From positions 1 to 50,603 of IMG/VR virus record IMGVR_UViG_3300032309_001784: DNA of 50,603 nucleotides; one strand, written 5' to 3'. Every line of letters begins with the position of its first letter. Within the stretch, counting starts at the first letter, position 1. Origin of the DNA: a virus. Taxonomy: Duplodnaviria; Caudoviricetes. Both the position numbers and the translations under genes were made by a program. Positions 10,001-45,530 of the stretch are shown piece by piece. The notes beneath the pieces were generated by a model. That model ran no database searches. It worked only from the letters and a program-made list of their open reading frames with translations, and was not told where the DNA came from.

Positions 10001-12584
10001 CACGGCCACGGCACTGTTCGGCAAGGCCGGTGCGGACCTCATTCCGTTCTTCAACAATCTCCCCGGAGCAACAGCCGACATCGAGCGGTTCGGCCGTTCT
10101 CTTACCGCCATCGACCGTCGTCGCGTTGACGAGTTTGGTGCAGGGCTTGACGCACTAAGCGTTGCCACACAAGGGCTCGGGCAAACTCTGCTTTTGCCGT
10201 TTGTCGGGCTCGGAGAAGGCGTTGCAACGGCATTTGCTGAGATCACTGCGGGCATCACGGCGATCATCGACCCAATTGGCCAGATCCTCGAACCCGTGCT
10301 GACGCAAATCGGACGAATCATTCAACTGCTCGGCACGAACCTTGGAAACTTGGGTCGCGTGATTGGTGCAGTTTTTCAGCCGTTTGCAACAGTTGCGCAA
10401 ACCGTATCGCAAGCCTTGGAGCCACTGTATGACGGGCTTTTTGGATTCCTGGAAGTATTCGGCGACGCCTCCGTTCAGGTTACTGAGTTCCTCGTTTCGT
10501 TCACGTCGATCGGTGCAATCGCCGCGAACGCTTCTGCTCTCGGCGACACGTTGAGCCGCGTTGTGGCGATTGTCACCACGGCGTTCTCGCGGATTGGAGA
10601 GCTGATCGGCAACACGCTCGGACAGGCAGTCGAGTGGGTGTCGCGTAGCGTGACTGCGTTCGTTGAGTTCACGGGGCTCGTTCCGACGCTCGAAGCGATC
10701 GGTGGCACGATCAGCAGTGTCTTCGGTGCTGTGTCGTCTGTGTTTCAGACAATCGCCAGTGCTATCGGCGGAACGGTCGGTCGATTGCTGACGATGGCCG
10801 AAAACTTCCTGGGCATCGAGCGATCCGCCGAAGCGGCGTCTTCCGGCGTGGACCAAGTGACCAACTCAACCGTCCAACTCACCGAAGAACAAAAACGCGC
10901 GGCTGCCGAAGTGCAGAAGGCCGTCGAGAATAGTTCCGGCGTTCTCGACACTGCGATCCAGAAGGCGGGCGAATTCGGCCAGGCGGGCTTCGAGGCAGCG
11001 TTTCAGTTCCAAGAGGCACTCGCCGACCTCAAGGAGCAGGCCGACGCCAACGAACTCAACGCCGAGCAGTACAGTCGCGGCGTTGCGCTTGCGACGGCTG
11101 AGTTCGACAAGCAGGTTGACCGCTTGAAGCAAATTCAAGACGAGACCCGCAAGGCAGCCGAAGAGGCACAAAAGCGAGTCGATGCCGACCGCCAGGTGGC
11201 CGACGCGTTGCTAGAGCAGGCTCGCATCAACGAGCAGTTCGGCGGCGACGCATCGCGCGCGAAGGCTGCCGATGCGGTGCTGGCAGTTGAACGCGAGATC
11301 GCCCGCATCAAGGAGTCGGTGGGCGCGGCTCGCGACAGCGGCGACGCTGAGGCGGTGGCTACCGGCGAGGAGCGGATTCGGCAACTCCAAGAAATCCAGA
11401 ACCAGCAGGCAGCGATCGCCGACGGCTCCGCGAAGGCGGCAGCCGACGAAGCCAAGCGGGTCGAGGATCAGAAAAAGCGGGTGGACGCTCTGATCGCATC
11501 CAGCGACACGCGGAGTGAACTGGAACAGCAACTTATCGACGTTCAAGAGCAGCAGAAGATCACGCTCGATCAACTCATTGTCGCACGCCAGACGTTCAAT
11601 AGAGAGCAGGCGGACGCTGCCGCTGGCCGTCTTGCCCAGCTCGACCAACTGCAAGCCAAACTCGACGATCAGCAGCAAGCCGTCGAGCAAGGCTTTGGGG
11701 AGGGCTTCGCCAAAGCGTTTGACGCGACAAACAAAGGGATTGACGAACTTATTGTTAAGGCCGAGCAGCAATTCGGCACCGTTGGTGCTCTGGCGGGCGA
11801 GGCTCTACGGGCAGGAGTTGCTGCCGCCCAAGCCCGTGCCGATGCTGACAAGACTTTCAGCGCAGAGGCTTACGAGCGCGAAGTTGCCCAGCAACGCGAC
11901 ATCTTCCAGCAACGACTAGACGCCGCCAACCGCGTCGAGGAGTTCCTGCGAAACGGAATCGACGCTCGGCAGCAGGCGGAACTCAAGGCGACCGAGGAAC
12001 TTGAGAAGCGGAAGAAGGAAGCCGCGACCAACGTCCAGGCGATCGAAGCGAAGCTCATTGAGGAGCGTAAGAAGTTGGAAGAGGCCCGCGAGGCGGGCGA
12101 CCTTCGCGGGGCTCGCGCGGGAGCGACGCGCGTCAGAGAACTGGAGCGAGTGCAGCGGCAGGAGCAGCAACTCGCAGACGGTCGCCTGCGGCAGCAAGAT
12201 CAGATTGGGCAACAGTTTGTGTCTGGCCTCAACACTGCCCAGCAATTTCAAACACTCGTCGCGCAGCAAAACGACAACTTTCTAAAGTCGTTCAACGACA
12301 CCTACGCAGGGGCGAACCAAGCTCTCGCCGCTGCCGCAGAGCGAGCGGCGAAGATGGAGCGGCTGCTCACGCCTACAAACCAACTGGCAAACACCGCTGA
12401 CATTCGGACGCAAGAAGGCCAAGACATCCTTCTCGGGCTCGCCGCTAGCGCGCAAGACCCCCGGTTGATCGAGGCGAAGTTGCAAACGAAGCAGTTGCAA
12501 CTCATCGCGCAAGGCATCGGCCAAGCGGCATCAAATTACTTTAACTCGCCCGTCGCTATCGTCGGCGGTGCGGTCCTTGGGTGA
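7098..12584 (+). CDS. Tail tape measure protein
   Basis: 1828 aa, Ala/Glu/Gln-rich helical protein with a central hydrophobic region; follows the chaperone pair. Confidence 0.93.
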   Translation: MATILGLALKINADASGVPRSLTPVEKALRSLDVEAAKVTKVFENFAKASGAAADVQRRFESEIQSLTQALQAGEINGQQFADGFAAIRAAAGDLAETFAEGARVTEQYRTEEDRRAETLERLATLLEAGAISEATYSRARAEASGANAAAAREEQTRLAQINSLQSEAAAITARYQTDQEKRAASEARLNTLREAGVLSEETYKRAIEDASGATQAAVKAEQERSAALAEGKRLTDQFLSADQQRAAELQRLNSLYRNGTIEAETFARAVASSSQQGDSTQLQRFAEAIGPLREQAQSGAMSLEEFQRAAAGIADAVAASTAPTVRSAEAILELKSRLDAGTISIEEYRAQFAQIQSGDFRSTFTVEVLGVREGVEATERLQSAVSSLQGTQIEAALQITGTESIDQLRSQFASIDGAKIDAILQVLGVETVDEAKARLATIDGTTVTAQLNTVGIESIAQAQQAIDSLEGKQVEAVLEITGAESIEQLRSEFASIDETRIDAVLEILGVDAVDDAKARLASLQGTQIEAVLRVLGVDTVDEARSRLASLDGTTVTAELNAVGMESIEQAQRVIDSLEGKDITVLAETLGASSVEELTQIINAVESKTVSVETSTNADETARAVRSLVEEQDAYQSLLRDAERLNEANRSSAEKQARQLERLDAVYATGKLRIEAYNAEAARILGINELAAASERERAAASAAAAADQAAASRIIEANLTKQERAQRDFEKSTQELNRLRAAGRLTESDYATALQRTADAYAKATIAASKFDAASDKASGASVLKFNELSGILSALPGPIGNVAGRLSGLSSAGEGLARVFSGGLAGGLSSVGKSVAALVNPFTLAVGGVVAFGAAALAVTRGLAALEDRVENLGNIADKLGVSFEFIQTLEEAANRSGTSIDAVSAAFGRLQKSVLGVDEESKAAQKALSEIGVTAEELAQLSPEDQYQRIGAALADIEDPARRTATATALFGKAGADLIPFFNNLPGATADIERFGRSLTAIDRRRVDEFGAGLDALSVATQGLGQTLLLPFVGLGEGVATAFAEITAGITAIIDPIGQILEPVLTQIGRIIQLLGTNLGNLGRVIGAVFQPFATVAQTVSQALEPLYDGLFGFLEVFGDASVQVTEFLVSFTSIGAIAANASALGDTLSRVVAIVTTAFSRIGELIGNTLGQAVEWVSRSVTAFVEFTGLVPTLEAIGGTISSVFGAVSSVFQTIASAIGGTVGRLLTMAENFLGIERSAEAASSGVDQVTNSTVQLTEEQKRAAAEVQKAVENSSGVLDTAIQKAGEFGQAGFEAAFQFQEALADLKEQADANELNAEQYSRGVALATAEFDKQVDRLKQIQDETRKAAEEAQKRVDADRQVADALLEQARINEQFGGDASRAKAADAVLAVEREIARIKESVGAARDSGDAEAVATGEERIRQLQEIQNQQAAIADGSAKAAADEAKRVEDQKKRVDALIASSDTRSELEQQLIDVQEQQKITLDQLIVARQTFNREQADAAAGRLAQLDQLQAKLDDQQQAVEQGFGEGFAKAFDATNKGIDELIVKAEQQFGTVGALAGEALRAGVAAAQARADADKTFSAEAYEREVAQQRDIFQQRLDAANRVEEFLRNGIDARQQAELKATEELEKRKKEAATNVQAIEAKLIEERKKLEEAREAGDLRGARAGATRVRELERVQRQEQQLADGRLRQQDQIGQQFVSGLNTAQQFQTLVAQQNDNFLKSFNDTYAGANQALAAAAERAAKMERLLTPTNQLANTADIRTQEGQDILLGLAASAQDPRLIEAKLQTKQLQLIAQGIGQAASNYFNSPVAIVGGAVLG
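8268..8915 (+). repeat. Eight tandem 27-aa (81-nt) repeats within tape measure protein
   Basis: e.g. GTQIEAALQITGTESIDQLRSQFASID / GAKIDAILQVLGVETVDEAKARLATID / GTTVTAQLNTVGIESIAQAQQAIDSLE. Confidence 0.85.
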
Positions 12585-19922: not shown

Positions 19923-20141
19923 ATGGACGCCCATTTTCCTGAATACGCCGCTGCCGCCGCAGCCCTCCACGAGCAAACGCCCTCCCCGATCCACGAGCCC
20001 GCAGTTGGTGACTTCGTGAGCGGCGTCACTGCCGGAAAGCGATGGGCGGGCCGCGTGCAGTGGGTCGCGGACGACGGCCGGATCTCGATCGAACTCGACG
20101 GCGGCTGGCTCTACGTGAGCAGCGGCGACATCACGCACTGA
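19923..20141 (+). CDS. Small hypothetical protein (SH3-like C-terminus)
   Basis: RBS GAAAGGA; PAVGDFVSG...WAGRVQWV...ISIEL. Confidence 0.6.
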   Translation: MDAHFPEYAAAAAALHEQTPSPIHEPAVGDFVSGVTAGKRWAGRVQWVADDGRISIELDGGWLYVSSGDITH

Positions 20142-20144
20142 AAC

Positions 20145-20218
20145 ACAGGAGAGGCGGTGGAACCGCCTGACGCAAGGACGCACGTGCCGTGGAGCCAGGA
20201 GGGCAAAGCGGCTTTTTA
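20145..20218 (+). ncRNA. Candidate CsrB/RsmZ-like GGA-hairpin RNA element
   Basis: Five GGA motifs in 74 nt, several in stem-loops, ending in a GCCG/CGGC stem plus TTTTT. Confidence 0.4.
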
Positions 20219-20255
20219 AGACGAACGGAAACGACAGAACGAAAGGGACTCGACA

Positions 20256-21188
20256 ATGGTTGCTATCAGAAAGGCCCGCCGCAGTGCCACGAAACTGCGG
20301 CTTCTCCTCACCAGCCCCAGCGGCGGCGGCAAGACCTACGGGGCGTTGCTGCTTGCGAAGGGTCTCGGCGGCAAGACCGTGGTGATCGACACCGAGGAGG
20401 GATCGTCCGACCTCTATGACACGCTCCACGATTTCGACGTGATCGACCTCAAACCGCCGTTCACCCCGGAACGCTACATCGAGGCGATCACGGCGGCAGA
20501 GGCCGCGGGCTATGGAGTGATCGTGATCGACAGCGTGACGCATTGCTGGAGCGGCCAGGGCGGCTGCCTCGAACTTTTGGACGACATCGCCAAGGCCCAG
20601 TTTCGCGGCAACACGTGGTCTGCCTTTTCGGTCATCACGCCACGCTGGCGGGCGTTCGTTGACGCGATCCTGCGAAGCCCGGCGCACGTGATCTGCACGG
20701 GCCGCAGCAAAACTGAGACGGCGCAAGTGGAGGACGGTGGGCGGAAAAAAGTGGCGAAACTCGGGATGAAGCTCGAAGCCCGCGACGGGCTTGAGTACGA
20801 GTTCACGGCGGTGCTTGATCTGATACACGACGGCCACTTCGCCACGGTCAGCAAGGATCGCACGGGCTTGTTTTGCGGCGACCCGAAGCCTATCAGCGTC
20901 GAGACCGGCAAGCGTCTCGCCGACTGGCTCGCGGGCGGCGCGGCGATTGCCACCGAGCCCGGCGTCACGCAGCAACAGCCGCAGAACGCCACGGTCGAAG
21001 CCCATCGGAAGAAGGCCGGCTGGCGCGACCGCGTCGCCCAGGCGGCGACGGTGGCCGAACTGAGCGCGATCTCTGACGAGGCGGATTTCGCCGTGTCCGC
21101 GGGCAAGCTCACCCACGAGCAACGCGACCAACTTGAGACGCTGATCGCCCAGCGTCACGAGACGATTGACGAGGCGTCGAGAACTTGA
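20256..21188 (+). CDS. AAA_24-family ATPase (Sak4-like recombination protein)
   Basis: Walker A SPSGGGKT, VIDTE, Walker B VIVIDSVTH, EYEFT. Confidence 0.85.
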   Translation: MVAIRKARRSATKLRLLLTSPSGGGKTYGALLLAKGLGGKTVVIDTEEGSSDLYDTLHDFDVIDLKPPFTPERYIEAITAAEAAGYGVIVIDSVTHCWSGQGGCLELLDDIAKAQFRGNTWSAFSVITPRWRAFVDAILRSPAHVICTGRSKTETAQVEDGGRKKVAKLGMKLEARDGLEYEFTAVLDLIHDGHFATVSKDRTGLFCGDPKPISVETGKRLADWLAGGAAIATEPGVTQQQPQNATVEAHRKKAGWRDRVAQAATVAELSAISDEADFAVSAGKLTHEQRDQLETLIAQRHETIDEASRT

Positions 21189-21231
21189 GTCTGAACGGAA
21201 CGAACCTCAACAACAACAGGAGAAGGAAGAG

Positions 21232-21702
21232 ATGGATTTCACGATCGACATTGCACCGCAGGCAGACAGCATCGACACCGCAGACCGGCCGCTCGTGCCG
21301 GCCGGCACGCACACGCTGACTATCCGCTCGGCGAGTGAAGGCCCGAACGAATACAAGCGAAGCGACGAGAACCCCGAGGGGCTCTGCCTCAAGTTGCGAC
21401 TCGCCTCCGACGGCAATCACAGGTTCGTTTTCGATGACCTCCCCGCTCACTTGGCGTGGCGTGCCCAGCAACTCGCCGCAGCGGTCGGGATCATTCCGGT
21501 GGACGGCAAACTCACGCTGCGGCCCGACGAGCTCGAAGGCCAGAAAGTGAGCGTGGAAATCACGCACTACACGTCGAAGGCCGGCAAGGTCAGCGCCGTG
21601 GTGAAGCGGTATCTGCCCGCTACTGCCACGCCGAAGGCGGTGAAGAGGAGCAACCTCGCCGCCGTGAACGCTGCGTTTCCCGATGACGACATCCCGTTCT
21701 GA
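21232..21702 (+). CDS. Single-stranded DNA-binding protein (DUF669-like)
   Basis: LVPAGTH...; acidic C-terminal DDDIPF tail; follows Sak4-like gene. Confidence 0.75.
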   Translation: MDFTIDIAPQADSIDTADRPLVPAGTHTLTIRSASEGPNEYKRSDENPEGLCLKLRLASDGNHRFVFDDLPAHLAWRAQQLAAAVGIIPVDGKLTLRPDELEGQKVSVEITHYTSKAGKVSAVVKRYLPATATPKAVKRSNLAAVNAAFPDDDIPF

Positions 21703-21713
21703 GGAGGCCACAC

Positions 21714-21971
21714 ATGAGCATCTTCGGCGACGACGAAGACGACGACCGGCACGCTGCGAATCGACGGTGGAACTCCTACCTCGATGAGATCGACGCCGAG
21801 ATCCGAGAGGAGCAAGCCCAACGGGCGACGTTCACCGCGGACATCGGCAATGTGTTAGAGCCCGACATCGTGATCAAGCCCGGGTCGCATCACGCGGCTG
21901 CGGCTGCGGCGGTCGGGCGTGAGGACGAGTACAGCAACCGAATGCGTCAGAAGTACGGAGGAGAGTGGTAG
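21714..21971 (+). CDS. Hypothetical protein
   Basis: Strong RBS GAGGAGG; 85 aa. Confidence 0.6.
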   Translation: MSIFGDDEDDDRHAANRRWNSYLDEIDAEIREEQAQRATFTADIGNVLEPDIVIKPGSHHAAAAAAVGREDEYSNRMRQKYGGEW

Positions 21972-22127
21972 ATGCCCTGGCACGACACGTGGACGCAGAT
22001 GAAACGGAAAAAGGCCCAGCCGCAGGGCCAGATTCGCCAATCGACTAGGGCGAAGCGGACGGTTCGCGGGAGTACCGACACCACCACCGCAGTGAAGGCT
22101 CGCAAACGACCTCCCTTGCCAGAGTGA
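21972..22127 (+). CDS. Small basic hypothetical protein
   Basis: ATG immediately after upstream stop; 51 aa MPWHDTWTQMKRKK... Confidence 0.4.
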   Translation: MPWHDTWTQMKRKKAQPQGQIRQSTRAKRTVRGSTDTTTAVKARKRPPLPE

Positions 22128-22176
22128 CTTCGCCGCCGGCCCGGCGTCACAGGGCTAATACACAAGGATGTGAACT

Positions 22177-22998
22177 ATGAAATCCCTCAACACCTTCTCT
22201 GAGATCGCCCCGCTCTACCTTGCCGAGCGCGTCGTCACCAAGCACTACGCCGCGAACGTGACTCGGGTCGCGGGCCGGGCCGGGCCGCTGTCGGTGGAAC
22301 GGATGAACCGCTACCTCACGAAGCGCGTCGAAGAGACGAGCGGGCTCACGACGCGATCGGAGCGGACGATCCTGCTCTCGCTCTGGAACTGGGGCTACCA
22401 GCGCGGGCTCGTCAAGGAAGCACCCCGCGGCGTGCTCAAGATGAAAGCCAGGCGGAAGCCGACGAAAGCGTGGACGGTGCCGCAACTGAAGGCGGTGCTT
22501 GATGCCGCGAAGGCGAAGACCGGCAAGAGGCTTCGCAGCGGTGCCGATCTCGGCGACCTCCTCGTGTGCTGGGTGCTCGTGGGCTACGAGTGCGGTGCCA
22601 GATTCGGCGACGTGATGAGTTTCACCCGCGACCATATCGACGGCGACACGCTCGCGTGGGTGCAGAGCAAGACGGGCGACCCGATCACCCGCCCGCTCAC
22701 GCCCGCGTGCCTCGACGCGATCGACAAGATGCTCGCGAAGTCGCCCGACGGGCGCATTCTCGGCTGGGCCTGCGGCCGGCGGATGGCGATGCGTTACATG
22801 CGCGAGCTCCTCGACTCGCTCGGAGTCGGCGGCTCCTCGAAGTGGTTGCGTCGCTCTGGAGCCACTCACTGCGAGATGGAAAAGGCCGGGGCCGGAAGGC
22901 TCCACCTGGGCCATCGGTCGCCAGCCCTCTTTGAACAAGCGTATTGCGATTGGTCTCAACTGCGGACGAAAACCCCGAGAACCCCTGCCCTCGTTTGA
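22177..22998 (+). CDS. Second tyrosine recombinase family protein
   Basis: CGARFGD (R), QSKTG (K), KWLRRSGAT, HLGH, QAY. Confidence 0.82.
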   Translation: MKSLNTFSEIAPLYLAERVVTKHYAANVTRVAGRAGPLSVERMNRYLTKRVEETSGLTTRSERTILLSLWNWGYQRGLVKEAPRGVLKMKARRKPTKAWTVPQLKAVLDAAKAKTGKRLRSGADLGDLLVCWVLVGYECGARFGDVMSFTRDHIDGDTLAWVQSKTGDPITRPLTPACLDAIDKMLAKSPDGRILGWACGRRMAMRYMRELLDSLGVGGSSKWLRRSGATHCEMEKAGAGRLHLGHRSPALFEQAYCDWSQLRTKTPRTPALV

Positions 22999-23011
22999 CT
23001 GGAGGCTTGGA

Positions 23012-23182
23012 ATGCCACCCCTCAACCGCGTACCCGTCGAACGGGTGCGACAACTGCTTGCCCAAGGCGTCACGGCGTCGGCGATCTGCCGCCGCCTGGC
23101 GATCAACAAGGGCTCGGTGTCGCAGATCAAGACACAGATGCAGAAGGAGTCGCAAGGATGCACGACTACCAGTTCGACGTGA
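23012..23182 (+). CDS. Small HTH protein
   Basis: RBS GGAGG; VRQLLAQGVTASAICRRLAINKGSVSQI. Confidence 0.65.
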   Translation: MPPLNRVPVERVRQLLAQGVTASAICRRLAINKGSVSQIKTQMQKESQGCTTTSST

Positions 23183-23469
23183 TCTCGCGCGTCGCTGATC
23201 TGCCGCTCTTTCGGGCGACCAACCCGGCGACATCACGGGCCGCTGCCGCCGAGGCGAAGAAGTTCCGCAGCCAGCACCACCGGCAGATCCTCGACGCACT
23301 CGCCGCTGGGCCGGCGGGGGCCAGCGGGATCGCGGCACGGTGCGGCATGGTCGCCCACCAGATCGGCAGGCGATTGCACGAGCTCGCCAAGGCTGGGCGG
23401 ATCGTGGAGACGGGCCGTGTGGTGAGGAGTGCGAGCGGGCGCGGGGAGCGTGAGTGGAGGGTGAAGTGA
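23158..23469 (+). CDS. Winged-helix DNA-binding protein
   Basis: FRATNPATSRAAA...QILDAL...IGRRLHELAKAGRIVETG...SGRGEREW. Confidence 0.7.
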   Translation: MHDYQFDVISRVADLPLFRATNPATSRAAAAEAKKFRSQHHRQILDALAAGPAGASGIAARCGMVAHQIGRRLHELAKAGRIVETGRVVRSASGRGEREWRVK

Positions 23470-23876
23470 TGCGACCCAACATCGACGAATACACGCGATA
23501 CATCGCTAGCCACCGCTGGGCTTGTAAGCGCGACGCTCGAAAGCAAATCGACGGCCATCGCTGCCAGACGTGCACGCACGACGGCACGCTCTGGAGGCTT
23601 GAGGTTCACCACAAGACATATGAACGATTTAAGGACGAGGACGTTGATCGCGACTTGATCACCCTATGCGTCCAGTGTCACGAAGCCGTGACGTGCGTAA
23701 TCCGGTCCCGTCGGTATGACGGCCAGCCGGTGCAAGTGTGTTTTGTTTCGGATGATTTTATTTCAAGAAAGGATGTGTCATATGGCATGGACGACTTTGA
23801 CCTACAAGATCACCGGAGACGCGCCGCTGATCATGCACAACGGCGATCTCGCAAACCCGTTGAGCAAGGCCGCTAA
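23469..23876 (+). CDS. HNH endonuclease-like protein adjacent to RAMP gene
   Basis: DGHRCQTC...LEVHHKTY...DLITLCVQCHEAV (CxxC-HH-CxxCH). Confidence 0.8.
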   Translation: MRPNIDEYTRYIASHRWACKRDARKQIDGHRCQTCTHDGTLWRLEVHHKTYERFKDEDVDRDLITLCVQCHEAVTCVIRSRRYDGQPVQVCFVSDDFISRKDVSYGMDDFDLQDHRRRAADHAQRRSRKPVEQGR

Positions 23877-24408
23877 GGCACTGAAGCAGGTTACATCGAA
23901 GAAGAAAAAGACGGACGCCGATTTTGAGCGGATGGCTGAAATCGAGTTCAAGGCTGGTCTCTACATCGACGAGGACCGCGGCCCGGTCATTCCCGGCGAG
24001 AATATCGAGGCCACGCTCTACAACGCGGCGAAGATCACGAAGGAAGGCAAGATTGCGAAGTCTGCATGCTTCGTTCCCAAGTCTGCGGTGCTTCAGTACG
24101 ACGGCCCGCGTGACGCTAACGGTCTCTGGCAGGAAGAACGCTTCCGCAACTGCGTCGGCGTGAAGGTTGGCATGAGCCGCGTGATGCGGACTCGACCGAT
24201 CTTCCACGATTGGTCGGCGATCGTCGAGGTCAAGTTTGAGGACTCGGTGGTGAACGAAGAGCAGGTCGATCGCTGGGTGCATGCGGCCGGCACGCAGGTC
24301 GGTCTCTGCGATTGGCGGCCCAGGTGCGGACGGTTCACCGCCGAGAAGGTGGCGAACACGACGCCGAAGAAGCGGAATGTTGCACCGGAGGCTGTCGGCG
24401 CGGCGTGA
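23782..24408 (+). CDS. Stand-alone Cas7/RAMP-like RNA-binding protein (Vipr-like effector candidate)
   Basis: 208 aa; N-terminal YKITGDAPLIMHNG, VIPGENIEATL (cf. RAMP IPGSSxKG), C-terminal Gly-loop AGTQVGLCDWRPRCGRF; RBS AGAAAGGA; repeat array begins 7 nt after the stop. Confidence 0.72.
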   Translation: MAWTTLTYKITGDAPLIMHNGDLANPLSKAAKALKQVTSKKKKTDADFERMAEIEFKAGLYIDEDRGPVIPGENIEATLYNAAKITKEGKIAKSACFVPKSAVLQYDGPRDANGLWQEERFRNCVGVKVGMSRVMRTRPIFHDWSAIVEVKFEDSVVNEEQVDRWVHAAGTQVGLCDWRPRCGRFTAEKVANTTPKKRNVAPEAVGAA

Positions 24409-24415
24409 TCAATTT

Positions 24416-25471
24416 GGCTTGGCACGGTTTGACTAATTATGTCCTGGCTCGCTTTGTCCAGGTCGGGCATGTCGGATCGCGGCTGACGCCCACTCTCGTG
24501 ATAGGCACGGCAGCACCTTCGACGGTGCGGAGTGGGATGGGACACGGTTAGTCATGGTGCGTCAAGTTGGGTTCGGGCGTGTTCCGGTGGTATCGGTTTG
24601 GGCTCGTTATGGAAACCTCTCTCGTGGTCGGCACGGTTGCGTCTTCAAGGGCGCGGAGAGGGATGCACTTAGTTAAGTGCTGGCTCATGTCGGTCAAGGC
24701 ATGTTCGGTCCTGTTCCGGTGGGTTTTGTTGTGGCAAGACTGGGCAAGGTTAGTCGAGTTATGGAAACCACCTGCACGGTCGGCGTGATTGCGGCTTCGA
24801 TGCCGCGAGGTGGGATGGGTCATGGCGTGTTGGGTTCGCGTTGTATGGGGCAATGTGGGTTCGGGCAATGCGTGTCATGTCATGGAAACCACCATCGTGC
24901 GGGCACGGAGGCCGATCGACGCGGCCGTGGTGGGATGTATCTAAGTGGTGCGTGGTTTGTCAGCGTCGGTTCAGTCAGTGCAAGGCAGGTTTCGTTCCGT
25001 TGTGGTTGGTCATGTTGTGTTCCGGTCTGGAAGGGCCAGTCACGGAAACCCCACCCGTGCAGGCACGGTTCCCGATCGACGCGGGAGGTGTGGGATGTGT
25101 CTGGTTGGTGCAAGGCACGGCACAGTGGGTTCCGCTGTGTTCCGGCGTGGCAGGTTTCTACCAAGCTCGTGCAGGCACGGGGCCGGATCAACGCCGGCGG
25201 CTTGGGGTGTATTAAGGCAAGGTCCGGTCGGGTTTGGTTTGTTGCGTTCTGTTCGGACACGGTCGAACGGGGCCGGTCAAGGCTGTGTAAGGCACGTCGG
25301 TGCTGGGTATCACAACCGCCATCGCGGTCGGCGCGGTGAGGCTTCGACGCCTCGTGGCGGGATGTCGCTCGGTCAGGTTTGGAATGTCATGGCAGGGCAG
25401 GTTTGTGGAATGTCTAGGCTTGGTTTCTTTGCCCTCGTGATAGGCACGAAGCCGCTTCGACGCGGCGGGGC
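24416..25471 (+). ncRNA. Array of 8 putative guide RNAs: 5-nt periodic (G-K-Y-N-N)n tract plus conserved three-way-junction hairpin
   Basis: Tracts at 24416, 24541, 24693, 24819, 24944, 25099, 25211, 25366; structured repeats at 24489-24536, 24616-24661, 24768-24813, 24889-24933, 25049-25093, 25161-25205, 25316-25360, 25431-25471, with compensatory stem changes. Confidence 0.85.
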
Positions 25472-25490
25472 GTAATTTCAAGGAGGAAAA

Positions 25491-26285
25491 ATGGCACGCC
25501 AAACAGTTGACCACTACATCCCGTTCTTTGGCCGCGACTTCTTGGCTGCTACAGCCGGATGGACCGCCGAAGAGCGAGGTCATTACGTGACGGCCTTGAT
25601 CGTCCAGTGGGAGCAGGGATCTATCCCAGACTCTCTTGAACGCCTAGAGATCATCTCGCCTGGAATCACGCGTACCTGGGCACTGCTTGAGTCGAAGTTC
25701 CCGGTATGCCGTGACGGCCGCCGCCGGAACCCTCGAATGGAGATTCATAGGGCGAAATCAGAGGCTCTAAAGGAAGCTCGCGTAGAGGCTGGCAGGGCTG
25801 GCGGGGAGGCGAATCAAGCAAACCGCAAGCAAACGGGCAAGCAAAACGGAAGCAAAACGCAAGCAAACGGGGTAGCAAACGGGGTAGCAAAACTGAAGCC
25901 TCCAACTCCAACTCCAACTCCAACTCCATCTCCTCCCCAAGAAAAACAATGCAGCGCACACACACCAGACGGCGAGGCGTGTTTTTCTGTTCAGGGGGAG
26001 GAAGAAGACACGTGGGAGTCGTTTGTCCGGTCGTGGAACGCCACTCACCGGGCCTGCCCGTGGACGCCGCTGGTTCCCCCGGCTGCGTGGGGCGACTTCG
26101 CCACGTCTGACGGGTGGCTGGGGCGAGCCGAGCAGGCGCTTGAGCGGCTGCCGGCGTGCGAGTGGTTCGACACGCCCGTGGCCCTGACGAAGTTCTTCGA
26201 GTACGTGGACCGGATTCTGGCCGGGGAGTTCGACAACCCCAAGCAGGGCCGGCGAGCACGGCAGCCCGCAGGAGGGAACCTGTGA
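25491..26285 (+). CDS. Replication initiator, DUF1376 (YdaU-like) N-terminal domain
   Basis: YIPFFGRDFLAATAGWTAEERGHYVTALIVQWEQG...RRNPRME; RBS AAGGAGG. Confidence 0.8.
   Translation: MARQTVDHYIPFFGRDFLAATAGWTAEERGHYVTALIVQWEQGSIPDSLERLEIISPGITRTWALLESKFPVCRDGRRRNPRMEIHRAKSEALKEARVEAGRAGGEANQANRKQTGKQNGSKTQANGVANGVAKLKPPTPTPTPTPSPPQEKQCSAHTPDGEACFSVQGEEEDTWESFVRSWNATHRACPWTPLVPPAAWGDFATSDGWLGRAEQALERLPACEWFDTPVALTKFFEYVDRILAGEFDNPKQGRRARQPAGGNL
25815..25893 (+). repeat. Putative replication-origin iterons (7 x AGCAAA(A)C) inside initiator gene
   Basis: Copies at about 25815, 25826, 25838, 25850, 25860, 25873 and 25885, spaced 10-13 bp. Confidence 0.65.
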
Positions 26286-26800
26286 GAACGTGGGAAGAAA
26301 ACAAGACGACGATCAACCAACTCTGGCCCCAATGCCGCTGGACCGGCGAGGAGGGCGAGCTCTGGCGTGGCGACCTGTCGCGGCTGGATCAGGACGTGCT
26401 CTATGACGCGATTCGCGACGTGAAGCGAAGCCACGACACGCTGTACCCACAACTTAAGTGGATGCTCGAAACCTACCGCGAACTTGCGGCGCTGAAGAAG
26501 AGCGCCGGCGTCACGAAGACCAGGGCAGAAGTCAAAATAAAACTCGACATCAACGATGAGGAGAATGCCAAGCTCGTTGACGACTGCATGAAAATGATTG
26601 ACGAATCAACACGGGCAGACTTTCCTAGTGTTGAGGAAACGGTTCTCAATCAACTGAAGCAGAAGAACGGGATCTACGCGAGTGCCGCCGTGCGACTTCT
26701 CCGCTACGCGAGGCGTCGGCTGCTCGGCCAGGAAGAGACATTCGGGCGCGTGGCGAAGGATGGGCGAATTGAGCCGATTTCACTTGGAGTAGACAAATGA
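26282..26800 (+). CDS. Hypothetical replication-associated protein (helicase-loader position)
   Basis: GTG coupled to initiator stop; synteny only. Confidence 0.5.
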   Translation: MRTWEENKTTINQLWPQCRWTGEEGELWRGDLSRLDQDVLYDAIRDVKRSHDTLYPQLKWMLETYRELAALKKSAGVTKTRAEVKIKLDINDEENAKLVDDCMKMIDESTRADFPSVEETVLNQLKQKNGIYASAAVRLLRYARRRLLGQEETFGRVAKDGRIEPISLGVDK

Positions 26801-27036
26801 AGATTGCAACGGATTGCGAATCGAACGCACCGAAAGCACTCACGAAGCGACAGCGTGAGCTCCTCGATCTCGTGATCGAGCACTCCCGGCTCTACGGGCC
26901 GACTGTTCGCGAGCTTTGCGCCGCCGCCAAGATCGCGTCGCCGAACGGCGTGGCGTGTCACCTCAAGGCGCTTGAGCGCAAGGGCTACGTGCGACGCACG
27001 CCGGGCAAGGCCCGGGCGATCGAGGTGCTGCAATGA
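26797..27036 (+). CDS. LexA-type DNA-binding domain protein lacking the peptidase domain
   Basis: LTKRQRELLDLV...GPTVRELC...SPNGVACHLKALERKGYVRRTPGKARAIEVL. Confidence 0.85.
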   Translation: MKIATDCESNAPKALTKRQRELLDLVIEHSRLYGPTVRELCAAAKIASPNGVACHLKALERKGYVRRTPGKARAIEVLQ

Positions 27037-27287
27037 GCGTGCGTGACTTCGTGATGCTCTCGATTGGCGAAATCATCCTGGCGGCGACGTTCGCCCTTGG
27101 GATTTTGGTTGGTGCATCCCTGAGACGAAAGGAATCTTCTCATGACGACAGCAACGGCAGAACGGAAGCGGCGGCGCAGTGGCACCGCCCTCGATATCGT
27201 GACGCTCACGGCAGCGATGAACGCAGTGAAAAACGCGGTGTCCAACCGGCCTCTCAATCCGATCATGAACAACGTGCTGCTCTGTGA
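27033..27287 (+). CDS. Small membrane protein
   Basis: ATGA coupling and hydrophobic N-terminus; 3' part overlaps the beta-clamp gene. Confidence 0.35.
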   Translation: MSVRDFVMLSIGEIILAATFALGILVGASLRRKESSHDDSNGRTEAAAQWHRPRYRDAHGSDERSEKRGVQPASQSDHEQRAAL

Positions 27288-28260
27288 CGGGCGACTCGTT
27301 GCGGCAAACGGCGAACTGCGGATCGAGTGCTACATCGACTACGCGGGCGAGCCCGTTCTTCTCCCGTACCACCGGACCCTCGCGATCCTGCGGGCGGCGC
27401 GGCAGGGCCAGGTGCGAATTACGCCGAACGGGACGACGTGCACGATCGAGGCGGGCACTGCGCAGTGGACGCTGCCGACCGAGAGCGCCGCTGAGTTCCC
27501 GGGCACGGGGCTTGAGGACGCGCCGGCCTTGGCCCGCATCCCGTGCGACCAGTTCGCCCGGGCGGTAAACGCGGTGAGCTACGCGACCGACACGCAGGGC
27601 ACGCGGTTCGCGCTCGGCGGGATCTGCGTTGAAGTGAGCCGCAACGACGGGACGGTGACGTTCATCGCGACCGACGGCCGGCGGCTCTCGTCGTCTGAGA
27701 TCGAGATCGGGCAGGACACCGACGATGCCCAGCGGCTCGTGCCGGTGGCTGCCATGCAAACTATCCGCGATCTGTGCGACGGGCACGACGAGGAGGCGGT
27801 GCAAATCGACTCGACAGCGTCGGAGTTGATCGCGACGCTGCCAAACGCCCGCGTGATTGCCCGTCTCGTGGAAGGCAAGTTCCCGCGGTGGCGCGACGTG
27901 ATCCCAGAGCACGACACGAGCCCGACCACGGCGACGATTGCCGAACTGCGGGCCGCGACCAGTTCCGCGAGTATCTGCACGAGCGAGCAGTCGAAGGGCG
28001 TCGAGTTCACGTTCGACGGTGACACCATCGCGCTCAAGGGACAGAGCAGCGAGCACGGGACGGCGTCGGTCACGTGCCCTGTCGTGGAGGCCGGGAACGA
28101 GTGCACAGTGAAACTCGACCCGAGCTTCGTGCTCCAGTTCCTCGACGGCCTGCCGGCCGACGGTGAGCCGACGGTGTCGATTCTGACGAAAGACGCTGCG
28201 GGTGCCGTCGTGTTCCGGTGCGACGACTACACCGGGCTCGTGATGCCGCTCGGGGAGTGA
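27142..28260 (+). CDS. dnaN: DNA polymerase III beta sliding clamp
   Basis: 372 aa; NPIMNNVLL, AAEFP, RFALGGI, IATDGRRLS, ARLVEGKFPRWRDVIP, GLVMPL. Confidence 0.9.
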   Translation: MTTATAERKRRRSGTALDIVTLTAAMNAVKNAVSNRPLNPIMNNVLLCDGRLVAANGELRIECYIDYAGEPVLLPYHRTLAILRAARQGQVRITPNGTTCTIEAGTAQWTLPTESAAEFPGTGLEDAPALARIPCDQFARAVNAVSYATDTQGTRFALGGICVEVSRNDGTVTFIATDGRRLSSSEIEIGQDTDDAQRLVPVAAMQTIRDLCDGHDEEAVQIDSTASELIATLPNARVIARLVEGKFPRWRDVIPEHDTSPTTATIAELRAATSSASICTSEQSKGVEFTFDGDTIALKGQSSEHGTASVTCPVVEAGNECTVKLDPSFVLQFLDGLPADGEPTVSILTKDAAGAVVFRCDDYTGLVMPLGE

Positions 28261-28262
28261 GC

Positions 28263-28505
28263 ATGACGACACACTGGAACATCGACGCCGAGGAGTTTCG
28301 CGGGTTGTGGGAGTCGGGAACTCCGGTTGCCACGATTGCGAGCCGCTTCGGCGTGAAAATCAACCACGTGTACAAGCTGCGGCGGCAGTTCGGAATCGCC
28401 GAACGCGACAAGGTGGTGACGAAAGATCCGACACCGTCGCAGATCGCGGAGCGTGCCGCCGCTCTCAAGGTGAAACACTTGCAAGAGATGCGAGCGCTTG
28501 GCTGA
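28263..28505 (+). CDS. Small HTH-like protein
   Basis: LWESGTPVATIASRFGVKINHVYKLRRQFGI. Confidence 0.6.
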   Translation: MTTHWNIDAEEFRGLWESGTPVATIASRFGVKINHVYKLRRQFGIAERDKVVTKDPTPSQIAERAAALKVKHLQEMRALG

Positions 28506-28909
28506 TGTTCATCGCCACCGAAACACCGATGACGATTGAGATCGAGGACGCCGAGTACATCGCTCGCGCGTTGTGCAACCCTGGTTCCGAGATGCAACGC
28601 GAGCTCATCGACTCAAGCACCGACACGCCGATGGTCGTCGTGTATGACCCAGAGCCGATCGGCTGGGTGGCGACGCATCTCTGGCGTGGGCTTCAGACGC
28701 TCGAAGGCTACGTTGATCCAGAGTGGCGGCGCAAGGGGCTCGCGAGGATCGCCGCCCTGACGCTACTCGCGACGGGCTACCTTGACCGGACCAAGGCGAT
28801 TGCCGTGTTCTCTACCGAGTGCGTCACGCTCGCGAAGTCGCTCGGGTTTCAGGACGTTCGCCAGTTCCGGCGCAACCGCTACGGCGACTGGGAGCCCGCC
28901 CCGCTCTGA
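28505..28909 (+). CDS. GNAT-family acetyltransferase
   Basis: Acetyl-CoA motif YVDPEWRRKGLA. Confidence 0.7.
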   Translation: MFIATETPMTIEIEDAEYIARALCNPGSEMQRELIDSSTDTPMVVVYDPEPIGWVATHLWRGLQTLEGYVDPEWRRKGLARIAALTLLATGYLDRTKAIAVFSTECVTLAKSLGFQDVRQFRRNRYGDWEPAPL

Positions 28910-28955
28910 CTGCACGAGTCACGCAGAAACTTGACGCCGGCGCGAGCATGGCGGA

Positions 28956-29363
28956 ATGGAAACGCTGACTTTCTCGGTGCCGGGCGACCCGGTGCCGCAG
29001 CCGCGAGCGAGGGTTTCAACGCGCGGCGGATTCGCACGGGCCTACACGCCAGCCGAGCACCCGATACACCGCTACCGCCAGGCGATCGCCGCCGCCGCCC
29101 GCAAGGCGGGTGCAACTCCGACCGACGCCGTACCGCTCACGCTGATCGTGGATCTCGTGTTCGGAAGGCCGAAGAGTCACTACCGCAAGAGCGGGCTGAA
29201 GCCAGACGCTCCTCGGCTGCCGCGGCCCGACTGCTCGAACTGCCTCAAGGGGATCGAGGACGCGCTAAACGGGATCGCTTGGGTTGACGACACCCAGGTG
29301 AGCCGGGTCGTGGTCGAGAAGAGCTATGGCGACGAGCCCCGGACCGTCGTGCGGATTTCTTGA
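28956..29363 (+). CDS. rusA: RusA-family Holliday junction resolvase
   Basis: VPGDPVPQPRAR...RPDCSNCLKGIEDALNGIAWVDDTQV. Confidence 0.88.
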   Translation: METLTFSVPGDPVPQPRARVSTRGGFARAYTPAEHPIHRYRQAIAAAARKAGATPTDAVPLTLIVDLVFGRPKSHYRKSGLKPDAPRLPRPDCSNCLKGIEDALNGIAWVDDTQVSRVVVEKSYGDEPRTVVRIS

Positions 29364-29427
29364 CACGCTCGCGATAGTCGGTCGCAAGTCGCCGATGGAC
29401 CGGCGACGAACCTGAAGGAGAAATCCT

Positions 29428-29730
29428 ATGCGACCGTTTGTTCTCGTTTGTTCCCTGTTGTTCTGTGTTCCGGCCTTCGCCGACACGAACATTTACGCCC
29501 GCCGCGTCGTCATCTCGTCTGCCCAGCAAGACGCCGAGGAGATGGCCCGCACCGGCGTCCTTCGCCACTGCGGCCGGGCCGGCGGCCGGCGGGAAGGTAT
29601 CGGCACTGGCAGCACGCCCGACGCTGCGTTCCGCAACTGTTGCTACTACGGGCGGTATCGGATCGTTGAGAAGGGCGTCGCCTACTCGCCGACGCGTCGC
29701 CAGTATTTCGCCGTCATCCGCTACGAGTGA
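29428..29730 (+). CDS. Small secreted Cys-containing protein
   Basis: Signal-peptide-like MRPFVLVCSLLFCVPAFA; RBS AAGGAG. Confidence 0.6.
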   Translation: MRPFVLVCSLLFCVPAFADTNIYARRVVISSAQQDAEEMARTGVLRHCGRAGGRREGIGTGSTPDAAFRNCCYYGRYRIVEKGVAYSPTRRQYFAVIRYE

Positions 29731-29733
29731 GTC

Positions 29734-30363
29734 ATGCCCGCTGAGATCAGCACAAGCGATCCGTTTGGCCGGGCGATCGTGCAGACGATTCGCGAGCACG
29801 CGTATGAAAGCGTGCTTGAGATCGGCAGCATGGACGGGCTCGGCTCGACGCAAGTGATGATCGAGGCTCTGCGGCACGCGGGCGACCCAAGGCTAGTGTG
29901 TCTGGAAACCGACCCCGAGCGGTTCCGGCACCTGGCGTGGGTCGTCCGCGAGCACGCGTGGGTGCTGCCGCTGCGGCAGCCGTCGGTGTCGATGGCATCT
30001 CTCACGCCTAGCGACTTCGACCGCGACGTGTGGGGCTCGCCGCACAACCATCTCCGCTACCCCCGCGACCTCGTGGAGTCGTGGTGGGGCGAGATGATGG
30101 ATCAGATGCGAAGCGGCGAGGCGGGGTTTCTGGAGATGAACGCCGACACGTTCGACGTGGTGCTGGTCGATGGCGGCGAGTTCACTGGCTACGACGACTA
30201 CCGGCTCGCAAAGGATCGCTGTCGGTGCATGATGCTCGATGACGTGCATCATGCGTACAAGTGCGCTCGGGCTCACGCTGAACTCGCGGCCGACCCAGCG
30301 TGGCAACTGCACTGGCAGAGCCCTCACGTGCGAAATGGAGCCGCGATCTGGATAAAGAAATGA
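29734..30363 (+). CDS. Class I SAM-dependent methyltransferase
   Basis: VLEIGSMDGLGST, FDVVLVDGGEF, MLDDV. Confidence 0.8.
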   Translation: MPAEISTSDPFGRAIVQTIREHAYESVLEIGSMDGLGSTQVMIEALRHAGDPRLVCLETDPERFRHLAWVVREHAWVLPLRQPSVSMASLTPSDFDRDVWGSPHNHLRYPRDLVESWWGEMMDQMRSGEAGFLEMNADTFDVVLVDGGEFTGYDDYRLAKDRCRCMMLDDVHHAYKCARAHAELAADPAWQLHWQSPHVRNGAAIWIKK

Positions 30364-44040: not shown

Positions 44041-44364
44041 ATGCCGCAGCGGATCGAGATGTGGAAGCCGCCTCGCGGCACCGCGAAGATCCGCCGGCTG
44101 GAAGCCAGGCCGAACGGCTACCGGCGTGGCTACTGCGACCCGAAGCATCGCGCGTGGCGGCAGGCGGTGCTTGAGCGGGACGCTTACATGTGCCGGCACT
44201 GCTCTCGGGTTCTTGGCCGCAAGGGCGAGGCTCACGCCGATCACGTAATTCCAGTCAAGTTGCGTCCCGACCTGCGCTATGAGCTTTCCAACGGGCAAAC
44301 GCTCTGCCCGTCTTGTCACCAGAGAAAGACGAACGCCGAGACTAGGCGCGCAAACTCAGGTTGA
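44041..44364 (+). CDS. HNH endonuclease (HK97 gp74-like packaging cofactor)
   Basis: VLERDAYMCRHC...ADHVIP...NGQTLCPSCHQRKT; upstream of terminase. Confidence 0.85.
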   Translation: MPQRIEMWKPPRGTAKIRRLEARPNGYRRGYCDPKHRAWRQAVLERDAYMCRHCSRVLGRKGEAHADHVIPVKLRPDLRYELSNGQTLCPSCHQRKTNAETRRANSG

Positions 44365-44393
44365 TACATTCCGCCTACCACAAGGATGTGAGT

Positions 44394-45530
44394 ATGGCGT
44401 GCAGGAAATGCGGTTCGTCATGGACGACTATTTATGGGGCCGATCGTGCCTCGTGCCCCGAGTGCTGCAAGATCTCTCGGTTCAAGGAGCGCAAGGCCGG
44501 GCGATACGCCGACCCAATCAAGCACAAGACGTGCGCGGTGTGCGGCGTGCAGTTCGTCGCGGCCGGCTTGGCTGAGATACAGAAACGGAAATGCTGCTCA
44601 GATGCGTGCCGGGCTGTTCGCCGGAAGGAGGGCGTGCAGGCGAGCATAGCGTCAAGGAAAGGAACTCCCAGCAAGCCGAGGGGAAAGAAGACTCCCCTTC
44701 TGTGTGCGATGTGCGGCTCTAAAATCACGTCGAGTAATGGCCGGAAGTATTGCTCGACACGCTGCTTTCATGAGGCAAGGAACGCAGGCATACAAGCGTG
44801 GGACAGGAGCAAGATTGATGAGGCTGCCAGAAGGCGGCCCAACAATGTGTGCCAGTCACCCGAGGCGTATGCGGTTCGGGCCGGAATGAAACACAGGAAG
44901 GCATTCCTGCGGAGTGCCGAGAGGATGTGGAAGTGTGCTTTGCGGAAGCAACCGCGAGCCCCGGTCGCCATCGCTGCTAGTACGTTTGCATTCTTTGTTC
45001 GGCATATCCCGAAGGTTCTTTCGTGCAAATTGTGTGGAGTTCAGTGCGTCAAGCCTGCTTGCTGGAAGTTGCCGCATTGCTCTTGGGAGTGTGCCAAGAA
45101 AGATTGCACTGATGCTGTGTGCACATGCTGCAATCGCGCCATGAAGATTCATTTCATCGGCGGGAGTGTTGAGGCGAGGAAAGCAAAGCCGGTGTGCAAC
45201 AGGTGTGTACTCAAGAGGCACAAGAAGCTGTGCGGAGACTTTGGCAGGCGGTGCAGGAGATTCGGCGTGTTCTATGATCCCAAGATCACTAGACCGGCAG
45301 TCTTTGAGCGGGATGGCTATCGCTGCCACATCTGCAAGAAGAAGACCCTGGCGAAGTATGTTATTCGAGACGGTCATGCTGACCCGATGTCGCCGACAGT
45401 TGACCACCATCCCTACCCTTTGAGTGCAGGCATCAAGGGTCATGAGTGGGACAATGTTCGCTGTGCCTGCTTGAAGTGCAACGTGCGCAAAGGCGCGTCA
45501 TGGTCTGGGCAGATGCTACTGTTTCGTTGA
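44394..45530 (+). CDS. Multi-zinc-finger HNH endonuclease (homing-type)
   Basis: Many CxxC pairs; C-terminal VFERDGYRCHIC...TVDHHPYPL...HEWDNVRCACLKCNVRKG. Confidence 0.8.
   Translation: MACRKCGSSWTTIYGADRASCPECCKISRFKERKAGRYADPIKHKTCAVCGVQFVAAGLAEIQKRKCCSDACRAVRRKEGVQASIASRKGTPSKPRGKKTPLLCAMCGSKITSSNGRKYCSTRCFHEARNAGIQAWDRSKIDEAARRRPNNVCQSPEAYAVRAGMKHRKAFLRSAERMWKCALRKQPRAPVAIAASTFAFFVRHIPKVLSCKLCGVQCVKPACWKLPHCSWECAKKDCTDAVCTCCNRAMKIHFIGGSVEARKAKPVCNRCVLKRHKKLCGDFGRRCRRFGVFYDPKITRPAVFERDGYRCHICKKKTLAKYVIRDGHADPMSPTVDHHPYPLSAGIKGHEWDNVRCACLKCNVRKGASWSGQMLLFR

Follow-up and report, generated by a model that had tools for sequence, protein, structure and literature searches.

The systems known as VIPR, for Viral Interference Programmable Repeat, provide CRISPR-like, RNA-guided silencing of DNA and are described in a series of 2026 preprints (including 10.64898/2026.04.26.720920); the published experiments concern enterobacterial and Pseudomonas phages. 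In the type II system of SUSP1 (10.64898/2026.04.26.720920, 10.64898/2026.04.26.720927, and 10.64898/2026.10.15.759431; structure PDB 36pp), the Vipr protein was shown experimentally to polymerize along a guide RNA, to hold its constant bases, and to leave pairs of variable bases (NN) for gapped pairing. Perturbing the constant GGY motifs abolishes SUSP1 silencing, and a pseudoknot has been reported for the guide tail of this clade. Nuclease-bearing VIPR types III and V are described as antiviral and enriched in cellular defense islands; the same preprint (10.64898/2026.04.26.720920) names HNH-domain Vap proteins in a figure legend, and non-canonical, degenerate scaffolds are reported in 10.64898/2026.10.21.760802. 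Here, we analyze the complete 50,603-bp virus record IMGVR_UViG_3300032309_001784 (hereafter the window) and find that positions 23469–25478 very probably form a VIPR cassette in a tailed-phage genome, consisting of an HNH gene, a vipr gene, and an array of eight vrRNAs (Table 1).

The locus shares with SUSP1 type II a homologous Vipr (E 8.6e-32 to 36pp; ~36% identity to the felixounavirus copies) with seven of nine mapped contact residues conserved, tandem pentamers with two variable bases, a conserved structured tail, and placement of the array next to vipr in a phage. It also shares a predicted target in a rival mobile element that is read in codon register with a skip of one nucleotide (nt), and no self-target. 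It differs in that no vap1-like DNA-binding gene follows vipr and an overlapping HNH gene lies upstream instead, and in that the array starts 5 nt past the vipr stop codon, where the wV8 and Medea1 loci have a gene of ~150 amino acids (aa). Compared with the wV8 gene in that vap1 position, the HNH and winged-helix genes of the window show no resemblance (E 0.83 and 1.2). All eight guides lie downstream, compared with one upstream and three downstream in SUSP1; tracts hold 13–21 units rather than the reported 9–16, and the scaffold is G-K-Y rather than G-G-Y. The tail is a three-helix structure whose covariance model finds no copy in the wV8, Trine, or Medea1 loci, and the predicted target is a related phage's replication gene rather than a satellite recombinase. 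The system is therefore a member of the VIPR family that stands outside the SUSP1 type II architecture, with no vap1, a different tail, and every guide downstream.

A Vipr protein with a predicted Csm3/Cas7-like fold

An earlier note, made from the letters of this DNA alone, had proposed that a 208-aa open reading frame (ORF) encodes a stand-alone Cas7/RAMP-like protein and had pointed to a resemblance to VIPR. Searching PDB sequences with phmmer, we obtained a single match for this ORF, chain 36pp_D, 'SUSP1 Vipr protein' (E 8.6e-32, residues 6–190), which turns that resemblance into direct homology. In PHROGs the ORF matches phrog_4652 (E 6.5e-57), a family annotated as of unknown function; no Pfam family passed the cut-off, and a scan of a genome-contig collection returned no relative. 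The ORF is real; homologues number 475 at E<=1e-3, and those opening with M-A-W fix the start codon. Relatives found by tblastn comprise felixounavirus (35.9% identity), Pseudomonas (40–44%), and Gordonia (45–47%) copies in addition to copies in Mycobacterium phages.

An AlphaFold 2 model built on 27 homologues reached a pLDDT of 89.8. Foldseek comparison with the PDB gave 60 matches at E<=0.001; those listed are all chains of CRISPR effector complexes, with Csm3 leading. The best matches are Csm3/Cas7 chains (E 2.4e-5; template-modeling (TM) score 0.45–0.54 for Csm3 and type VII Cas7); the library is older than the Vipr structure entry. Structure prediction thus agrees with the proposed Cas7/Csm3/RAMP-like protein. 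The likeness to class 1 Cas7, Csm3, and Cmr4 lies in the fold and in the proposed polymerization on a guide with periodic base flipping, whereas sequence identity is 8–13%, no other cas genes, repeat-spacer array, or adaptation genes are present here, and the period is 5 nt with two pairing bases rather than 6 nt with five. As a reading of the locus, class 1 CRISPR-Cas is rejected: a PHROGs scan matched no Cas family among the 56 window ORFs, and the genome has neither a repeat-spacer array nor CRISPR-like identical direct repeats, as the earlier note had stated.

We then placed nine of the RNA- and DNA-contacting residues of SUSP1 Vipr, taken from 10.64898/2026.04.26.720927, on the phmmer alignment to 36pp_D. 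Seven are identical in the window protein (SUSP1/window numbering: H17/H19, K33/K35, E71/E73, R138, D177, W178, and R179) and two are altered (M72 to N74, C173 to V173); T175, also named in the structure paper, was excluded as it is V in the PDB chain as aligned. In SUSP1, H and D form hydrogen bonds to the first G, R and W secure the second, E and R belong to a pyrimidine pocket, and K touches the target backbone (10.64898/2026.04.26.720927). Across the 27 aligned homologues H19, K35, R138, W178, and R179 are invariant, and the G-loop region D-W-R-P-R-x-G-R-F is conserved. Because of its sequence homology to the solved SUSP1 Vipr and the Csm3/Cas7-like fold of its model, we take the 208-aa ORF to be a true Vipr protein.

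An array of pentamer-coded guides

The array occupies 1.07 kb (24409–25478), with its first pentamer at 24413. Its same-base autocorrelation was 0.363, 0.349, and 0.347 at lags of 5, 10, and 15; in the two flanking genes the lag-5 values were 0.235 and 0.277, and the peaks fell at multiples of 3. A dynamic-programming parse yielded 132 pentamers in 8 tracts, in which position 1 is C or T in 124/132, position 4 is G in 111/132, position 5 is G in 68/132 and T in 54/132, and positions 2 and 3 vary. This gives the unit YNNGK (Y, C or T; K, G or T), a GKY/NN code. Across 119 window units the relaxed second scaffold base is G in 52% and T in 40%. The T share at this position is 21–45% in the close clade and ~13% where Vipr identity is 70%; more distant loci mostly show no more than 20%, with one at 29%. 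The array thus resembles the non-canonical VIPR units of 10.64898/2026.10.21.760802, pentamer arrays beside a Vipr-like fold with a scaffold off GGY, except that only the second scaffold base is relaxed here; in the passages of that preprint, a GKY scaffold was not found named.

Two long open frames of 220 and 176 aa (24677–25339 and 24945–25475) run across the array and might be read as coding for a repetitive protein. G/T-rich, stop-poor sequence is expected to produce such frames, the periodicity is exclusively 5-nt with no 3-nt component, neither ORF matches a Pfam family at E<=0.01, and RNA covariation (described below) and the unit architecture explain the region fully; we give a coding function almost no credence. 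The guide array is bounded downstream by its last tail, which ends at 25478; the AAGGAGG ribosome-binding site of the replication gene follows directly, with its start codon (ATG) at 25491. A search limited to sigma-70-like promoters and intrinsic terminators revealed neither on the + strand of 22900–25700, which points to one precursor transcript that is cut after each tail. The 5-nt periodicity and eight covariance-model matches bear out the earlier description of eight units with hairpin modules that stop just short of the replication gene.

Comparison with relatives supports a programmable array. Gene order (winged-helix (wHTH) gene, HNH, vipr, array) is kept in 10/10 close IMG/VR loci whose Vipr is 85–96% identical, and between these same phages the guides are hypervariable: nearly all differ, only window guides 2 and 3 have a counterpart, and guide 2 is 86% shared with unit 2 of L003 (L-numbers label homologous loci retrieved for comparison). 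Near-complete guide turnover is the behavior of programmable guides. In an alignment-based scan of 80 IMG/VR Vipr loci (43–96% identity; 10 of them contigs already in the close-relative set), 73 carried a + strand tract of at least seven units near vipr, as the earlier note had expected of homologous genes; on the minus strand, nine of the 80 loci had a single tract anywhere. Two relatives (L007:4344–4741 and L009:5297–5694) have a 398-nt stretch between tails that holds several short out-of-phase tracts and may represent degraded units or an insertion.

A predicted target in rival replication genes

We searched for targets under the published rule, in which NN dinucleotides are separated by one skipped base and at least 80% of the NN bases match (methods of the VIPR preprints), by joining NN pairs with one wildcard base and scanning both strands. 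The DNA scanned comprised 1.9 Mb of loci around homologues of the wHTH and large-terminase genes, extended to 2.66 Mb with primase-helicase homologues and loci from metagenome-assembled genomes (MAGs). Guide 3 (24685–24764) matched L035 at 11963–12009 with 27/32 bases, including 24 consecutive informative matches, while twenty shuffled guide controls reached at most 23/32. At the homologous site, 29 loci (a few being the same contig twice) scored at least 26/32, and the best five scored 28/32.

The site is part of a 587-aa ORF, a primase/DnaB-helicase gene whose domains are RepB_primase and DnaB_C, and encodes PRIMRLPGFVNWKYEQ within the RepB_primase domain (residues 97–170). It is matched in the coding sense, such that NN fall on codon positions 1 and 2 and the wobble position is skipped. 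The site is conserved although protein identity between the gene copies is only 71–100%. The window has no homologue of this gene (best tblastn E 0.43) and no self-target (best 19/28); the targeted phages share the wHTH gene with the window phage and lack vipr. An absent target gene at home and targets without vipr together indicate that guide 3 is directed against related rivals that lack VIPR, at their replication module.

Similar patterns appeared among guides of the relatives. A vrRNA 3 shared by L007, L009, and L010 (4900–4959 in L009) matches the wHTH gene of L008 (3560–3594) in codon register with 21/24, and those of L002 (3560–3594) and L006 (2358–2392) with 20/24, compared with 16/24 for its own wHTH copy and 14/24 for that of the window, which looks like self-avoidance while targeting kin. 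The vrRNA 7 of L002 matches a LexA-like repressor gene, a homologue of window 26797–27033, with 22/26 in codon register at four loci (Table 1). Among 48 distinct guides, two reach 19/20 over 10 units, compared with 1 and 0 in two shuffled sets.

A conserved tail fold and its solitary copies

Each guide ends in a tail of ~54 nt, and RNAalifold predicts for the eight copies a shared three-helix fold, with an outer 7-bp helix around two hairpins and compensatory changes in 10/14 pairs. A covariance model built from them recovered exactly the eight array modules in the window, all on the + strand, beside only two weak matches (E 0.07 and 0.25). Ten close relatives hold 53 further copies, 2–7 per locus (some loci are cut), all on the + strand and downstream of vipr. 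The tail type extends to the clade with 70% identical Vipr; the model found no copies in two distant Vipr loci and no match in more distant loci, nor in those of wV8 (SUSP1-like), Trine, or Medea1. No Rfam family matched 23000–26000 at E<=1.

To quantify covariation we used 63 model matches (51 distinct rows, including the two weak non-array window matches) in an alignment fitted to the model. Of its cells, 95.1% pair, and both sides change in 13/14 pairs. None of 500 shuffles reached the observed value on four of five measures and 2/500 did on the fifth (further pair types); slid controls gave 30–53% pairing. The loop of the second hairpin reads UUCRAN and that of the first has an invariant GG. 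The idea of a tRNA-like tail comes from this layout of 7-bp and 5-bp stems, UUCRAN loop, and GG. Tails of Gordonia phage Trine (L227, 3190–3250 and 3299–3360), which follow two YNNGG tracts, contain a GGTTCGACTCC stretch. GGTTCGACTCC is the classic tRNA T-arm sequence, and its presence is a second hint that the vrRNA tails of this branch borrow tRNA-like features.

Tail-like elements also occur without the system. Among 80 wHTH loci, 17 that lack vipr carry exactly one each (model E 1e-10 or lower; L013, L014, L018–L020, L022, L029, L032, L035–L037, L040–L042, L069, L071, and L074). These solo tails are nearly identical to window tail 8 (25425–25478), the copy most like them, and their helices are kept by compensatory changes, as in L035. 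They sit in the short gap between the upstream stop codon and the replication gene; in L040–L042 a replication-gene remnant encloses the solo tail. In the 14 loci examined (three near-duplicates were left out), the tail follows no pentamer tract, and 3–9 of the ~21–24 parsed units are canonical. In metagenome contigs of the probable source study, tail 8 has a coverage several-fold that of the remaining locus; many of these contigs align from 25431 onward only, and one joins 23415 to 25431. Solo vrRNAs published for VIPR-null SUSP1 relatives carry guides, whereas the solo tails here do not. They may be deletion scars, decoys, or a leader of the replication gene.

Iteron arrays beside rep genes are classic, and the 1.07-kb region could instead be a replication origin whose units are iteron or hairpin repeats bound by the downstream replication protein, with the RAMP-like gene unrelated. 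The array does end at the ribosome-binding site of a replication gene, and a tail-like element, whose coverage in metagenome contigs is several-fold that of the remaining locus, is kept just upstream of that gene in the 17 VIPR-less loci. However, pentamer tracts occur only where vipr is present, nearly all of them differ between phages with a related replication region, unlike iterons, and they have a 5-nt period with two variable positions on one strand. The tails, moreover, covary as RNA helices, and one tract, read by the VIPR code, fits a gene foreign to this phage. We regard an origin as very improbable and retain the guide array as the explanation of the region.

An overlapping HNH gene

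Rather than ending ahead of vipr, the HNH gene runs from 23469 to 23876 and overlaps vipr by 95 nt (23782–23876), such that ~31 codons are read in two frames. The overlap is 95 nt in the window and 7/9 relatives checked, 86 nt in L004, and 26 nt in L011. None of the zinc-binding and catalytic residues (both CxxC pairs, the HH motif) varies among nine aligned sequences. An HNH homologue lies directly upstream of vipr in 64/80 IMG/VR Vipr loci, in which Vipr identity ranges from 96% to 44% and HNH identity falls to 33%. This co-occurrence makes the HNH gene a candidate vap. From its co-inheritance with vipr we infer that it encodes an accessory effector of the system, a nuclease that may go beyond silencing and cut the bound target. 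A predicted HNH nuclease linked to vipr is also the likeness to the nuclease-associated VIPR types III–V, although, in contrast to types III and V, this cassette is phage-borne, lies between early genes, and has another phage as its one predicted target.

The HNH gene may alternatively stand outside the VIPR mechanism, as a free-standing homing endonuclease, a packaging-type HNH beside vipr, or a mobilizer of the cassette. Phages commonly harbor small HNH genes as selfish elements, two more lie beside the terminase in this genome, and the HNH-vipr-array cassette is patchy (8/80 wHTH loci). Loci of the SUSP1 type (wV8) and of Medea1 lack HNH, their vipr being followed by a ~150-aa gene instead, and the gene after vipr in Trine is an 803-nt hypothetical. 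Chance adjacency is nevertheless hard to credit across 64/80 loci with HNH identity down to 33%, the 95-nt overlap is maintained in most relatives, the catalytic and zinc-binding residues do not vary, and HNH is named among Vap proteins in the figure legend of 10.64898/2026.04.26.720920. We consider an unrelated HNH unlikely, if still a serious contender, and favor an accessory effector.

Genomic context

Nearly all genes of the window are on the + strand. First come major head, adaptors, tape measure, exonuclease, Sak4-like ATPase, and integrase-like recombinase, followed by wHTH, HNH, the 208-aa ORF, the array, a DUF1376-like replication gene, LexA-like repressor, sliding clamp, and RusA; tail fibers, a Mom-like gene, two more HNH genes, large terminase, and portal come later. 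The replication gene, which bounds the cassette, matches DUF1376 at E 0.0038, under the Pfam cut-off. The wHTH gene is a neighbor of the cassette rather than part of it: of 80 kept IMG/VR loci that have it, only 8 have HNH and Vipr. The two further HNH genes (44041–44361 and 44361–45527; 107 aa and 389 aa, the latter with its HNH domain at the C terminus) lie just upstream of the large terminase, a placement typical of packaging-associated HNH genes and distinct from that of the VIPR-linked one. ARAGORN found no tRNA or tmRNA genes in the whole window.

Table 1. Features of the VIPR cassette, its flanking genes, and related target sites. Coordinates are window positions unless preceded by a locus label.
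Feature	Coordinates	Strand	Evidence or content
Winged-helix (wHTH) gene	23158..23469	+	phrog_1123 E 2.1e-13; DprA_WH E 6.5e-5
HNH endonuclease gene, 135 aa, candidate vap gene	23469..23876	+	Pfam HNH E 2.6e-5, past curated cut-off
vipr gene, RAMP/Cas7-like guide-binding protein, 208 aa	23782..24408	+	phmmer to 36pp_D; phrog_4652; AlphaFold 2 model and Foldseek
vrRNA unit 1	24409..24540	+	14 in-phase pentamers from 24413; tail 24486–24540
vrRNA unit 2	24541..24666	+	14 pentamers from 24543; tail 24612–24666
vrRNA unit 3	24667..24818	+	16 pentamers 24685–24764; tail 24764–24818; only guide with a predicted target
vrRNA unit 4	24819..24938	+	14 pentamers from 24816; tail 24885–24938
vrRNA unit 5	24939..25098	+	21 pentamers from 24941; tail 25045–25098
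vrRNA unit 6	25099..25210	+	12–13 pentamers from 25096; tail 25157–25210
vrRNA unit 7	25211..25365	+	19 pentamers from 25213; tail 25312–25365
vrRNA unit 8	25366..25478	+	8 + 5 pentamers, one phase break; tail 25425–25478
Replication/primosomal gene (DUF1376-like), bounds cassette downstream	25491..26285	+	phrog_9327 primosomal protein E 2.5e-9
LexA-like repressor sites matching L002 vrRNA 7	L181:5880–5917, L044:3368–3405, L059:3654–3691, L060:13541–13578		

Megablast of window 20000–30000 found no match among isolated-phage sequences. Relatives of the large terminase (L173–L180; 43–70% identity) lie on MAG contigs assigned to Pirellulales, Planctomycetota, Phycisphaerales, and Pirellulaceae, the Pirellulales ones at 70% and, on a 660-kb contig, at 51%; three contigs of 1–1.4 kb with terminase relatives are binned to unrelated phyla. 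These terminase relatives weakly suggest a planctomycete host.

Discussion

By homology with SUSP1, Vipr protomers would polymerize along each pentamer tract with one protomer per unit, as the earlier note had suggested for this protein, holding the constant G-K-Y bases and exposing the variable NN. The NN bases would pair with DNA bearing the same dinucleotides one skipped base apart, and the structured 3' tail would cap each guide. Under this rule, and in codon register, the guide 3 sequence is complementary to a conserved site in the RepB-primase domain of related phages that have no VIPR and a different replication module. Because guide 3 matches this site, the cassette most likely serves to block rival phages' replication genes when a cell is co-infected or lysogenic; the match, obtained under the published gapped code, also lends support to the earlier suggestion of a use against competing phages.

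Several observations weigh against this interpretation. Guide 3 gave its best score in the published register among 20 register/skip combinations (28 versus 20–26), but the margin over the runner-up is modest (28 versus 26), as G-rich registers have a high background. Its match loses three 5' repeats and the last repeat; the last unit is part of a conserved junction with the tail, and together the unmatched 5' units and last unit suggest a working guide of ~12 units. Guides 1, 2, and 4–8 have no match of at least 0.8, and nothing above the shuffled level, in the 2.66 Mb of related phage and MAG DNA. The second scaffold G is T in ~40% of units, and, given the loss of SUSP1 silencing when GGY is perturbed, function with U there would have to be supposed. 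A near-identical tail without a tract in 17 VIPR-less loci leaves room for a second role of the tail fold, and the HNH could be an unrelated homing endonuclease.

A bolder joint reading, which we find quite improbable as a whole, combines a phage-borne, nuclease-armed VIPR branch with tRNA-like tail processing and tail-only decoys. The overlapping HNH would be recruited to the Vipr filament and cut the rival's replication gene. The tail would be a tRNA-like mini-structure, with a 7-bp acceptor-like stem, a GG hairpin, and a 5-bp stem with a T-loop-like UUCRAN, at which host tRNA-processing enzymes would cut the eight-guide precursor into units. Structurally selected tail-only copies would act as decoys that soak up the Vipr of rivals.

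The earlier note had further suggested that a degenerate scaffold, tRNA-like spacers, and a linked HNH may define a distinct variant. The distinction is narrower than supposed: publications already cover VIPR itself, scaffolds of non-canonical type, and accessory domains of the HNH kind, and an HNH-vipr pairing is common in IMG/VR. New here are the predicted guide 3 target, the overlap and linkage of the HNH gene, G or T at the second scaffold base, and the solo tail-only elements. In the passages of the VIPR preprints covered by our literature search, we found no mention of Planctomycetota or of a primase-helicase target.

These findings extend the VIPR family to an abundant lineage of lake phages and provide a concrete guide-target pair, with a guide predicted to be aimed at a catalytic primase motif in the replication gene of rivals. 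The conservation of this site fits the proposal in print that synonymous mutations offer little escape from guides that skip the wobble base. Within phage genomes, this Vipr branch is usually accompanied by a nuclease gene, which bears on the published view of nuclease-bearing VIPRs as cellular defense. G or U at the second scaffold base is, in turn, a natural experiment on how Vipr reads its scaffold.

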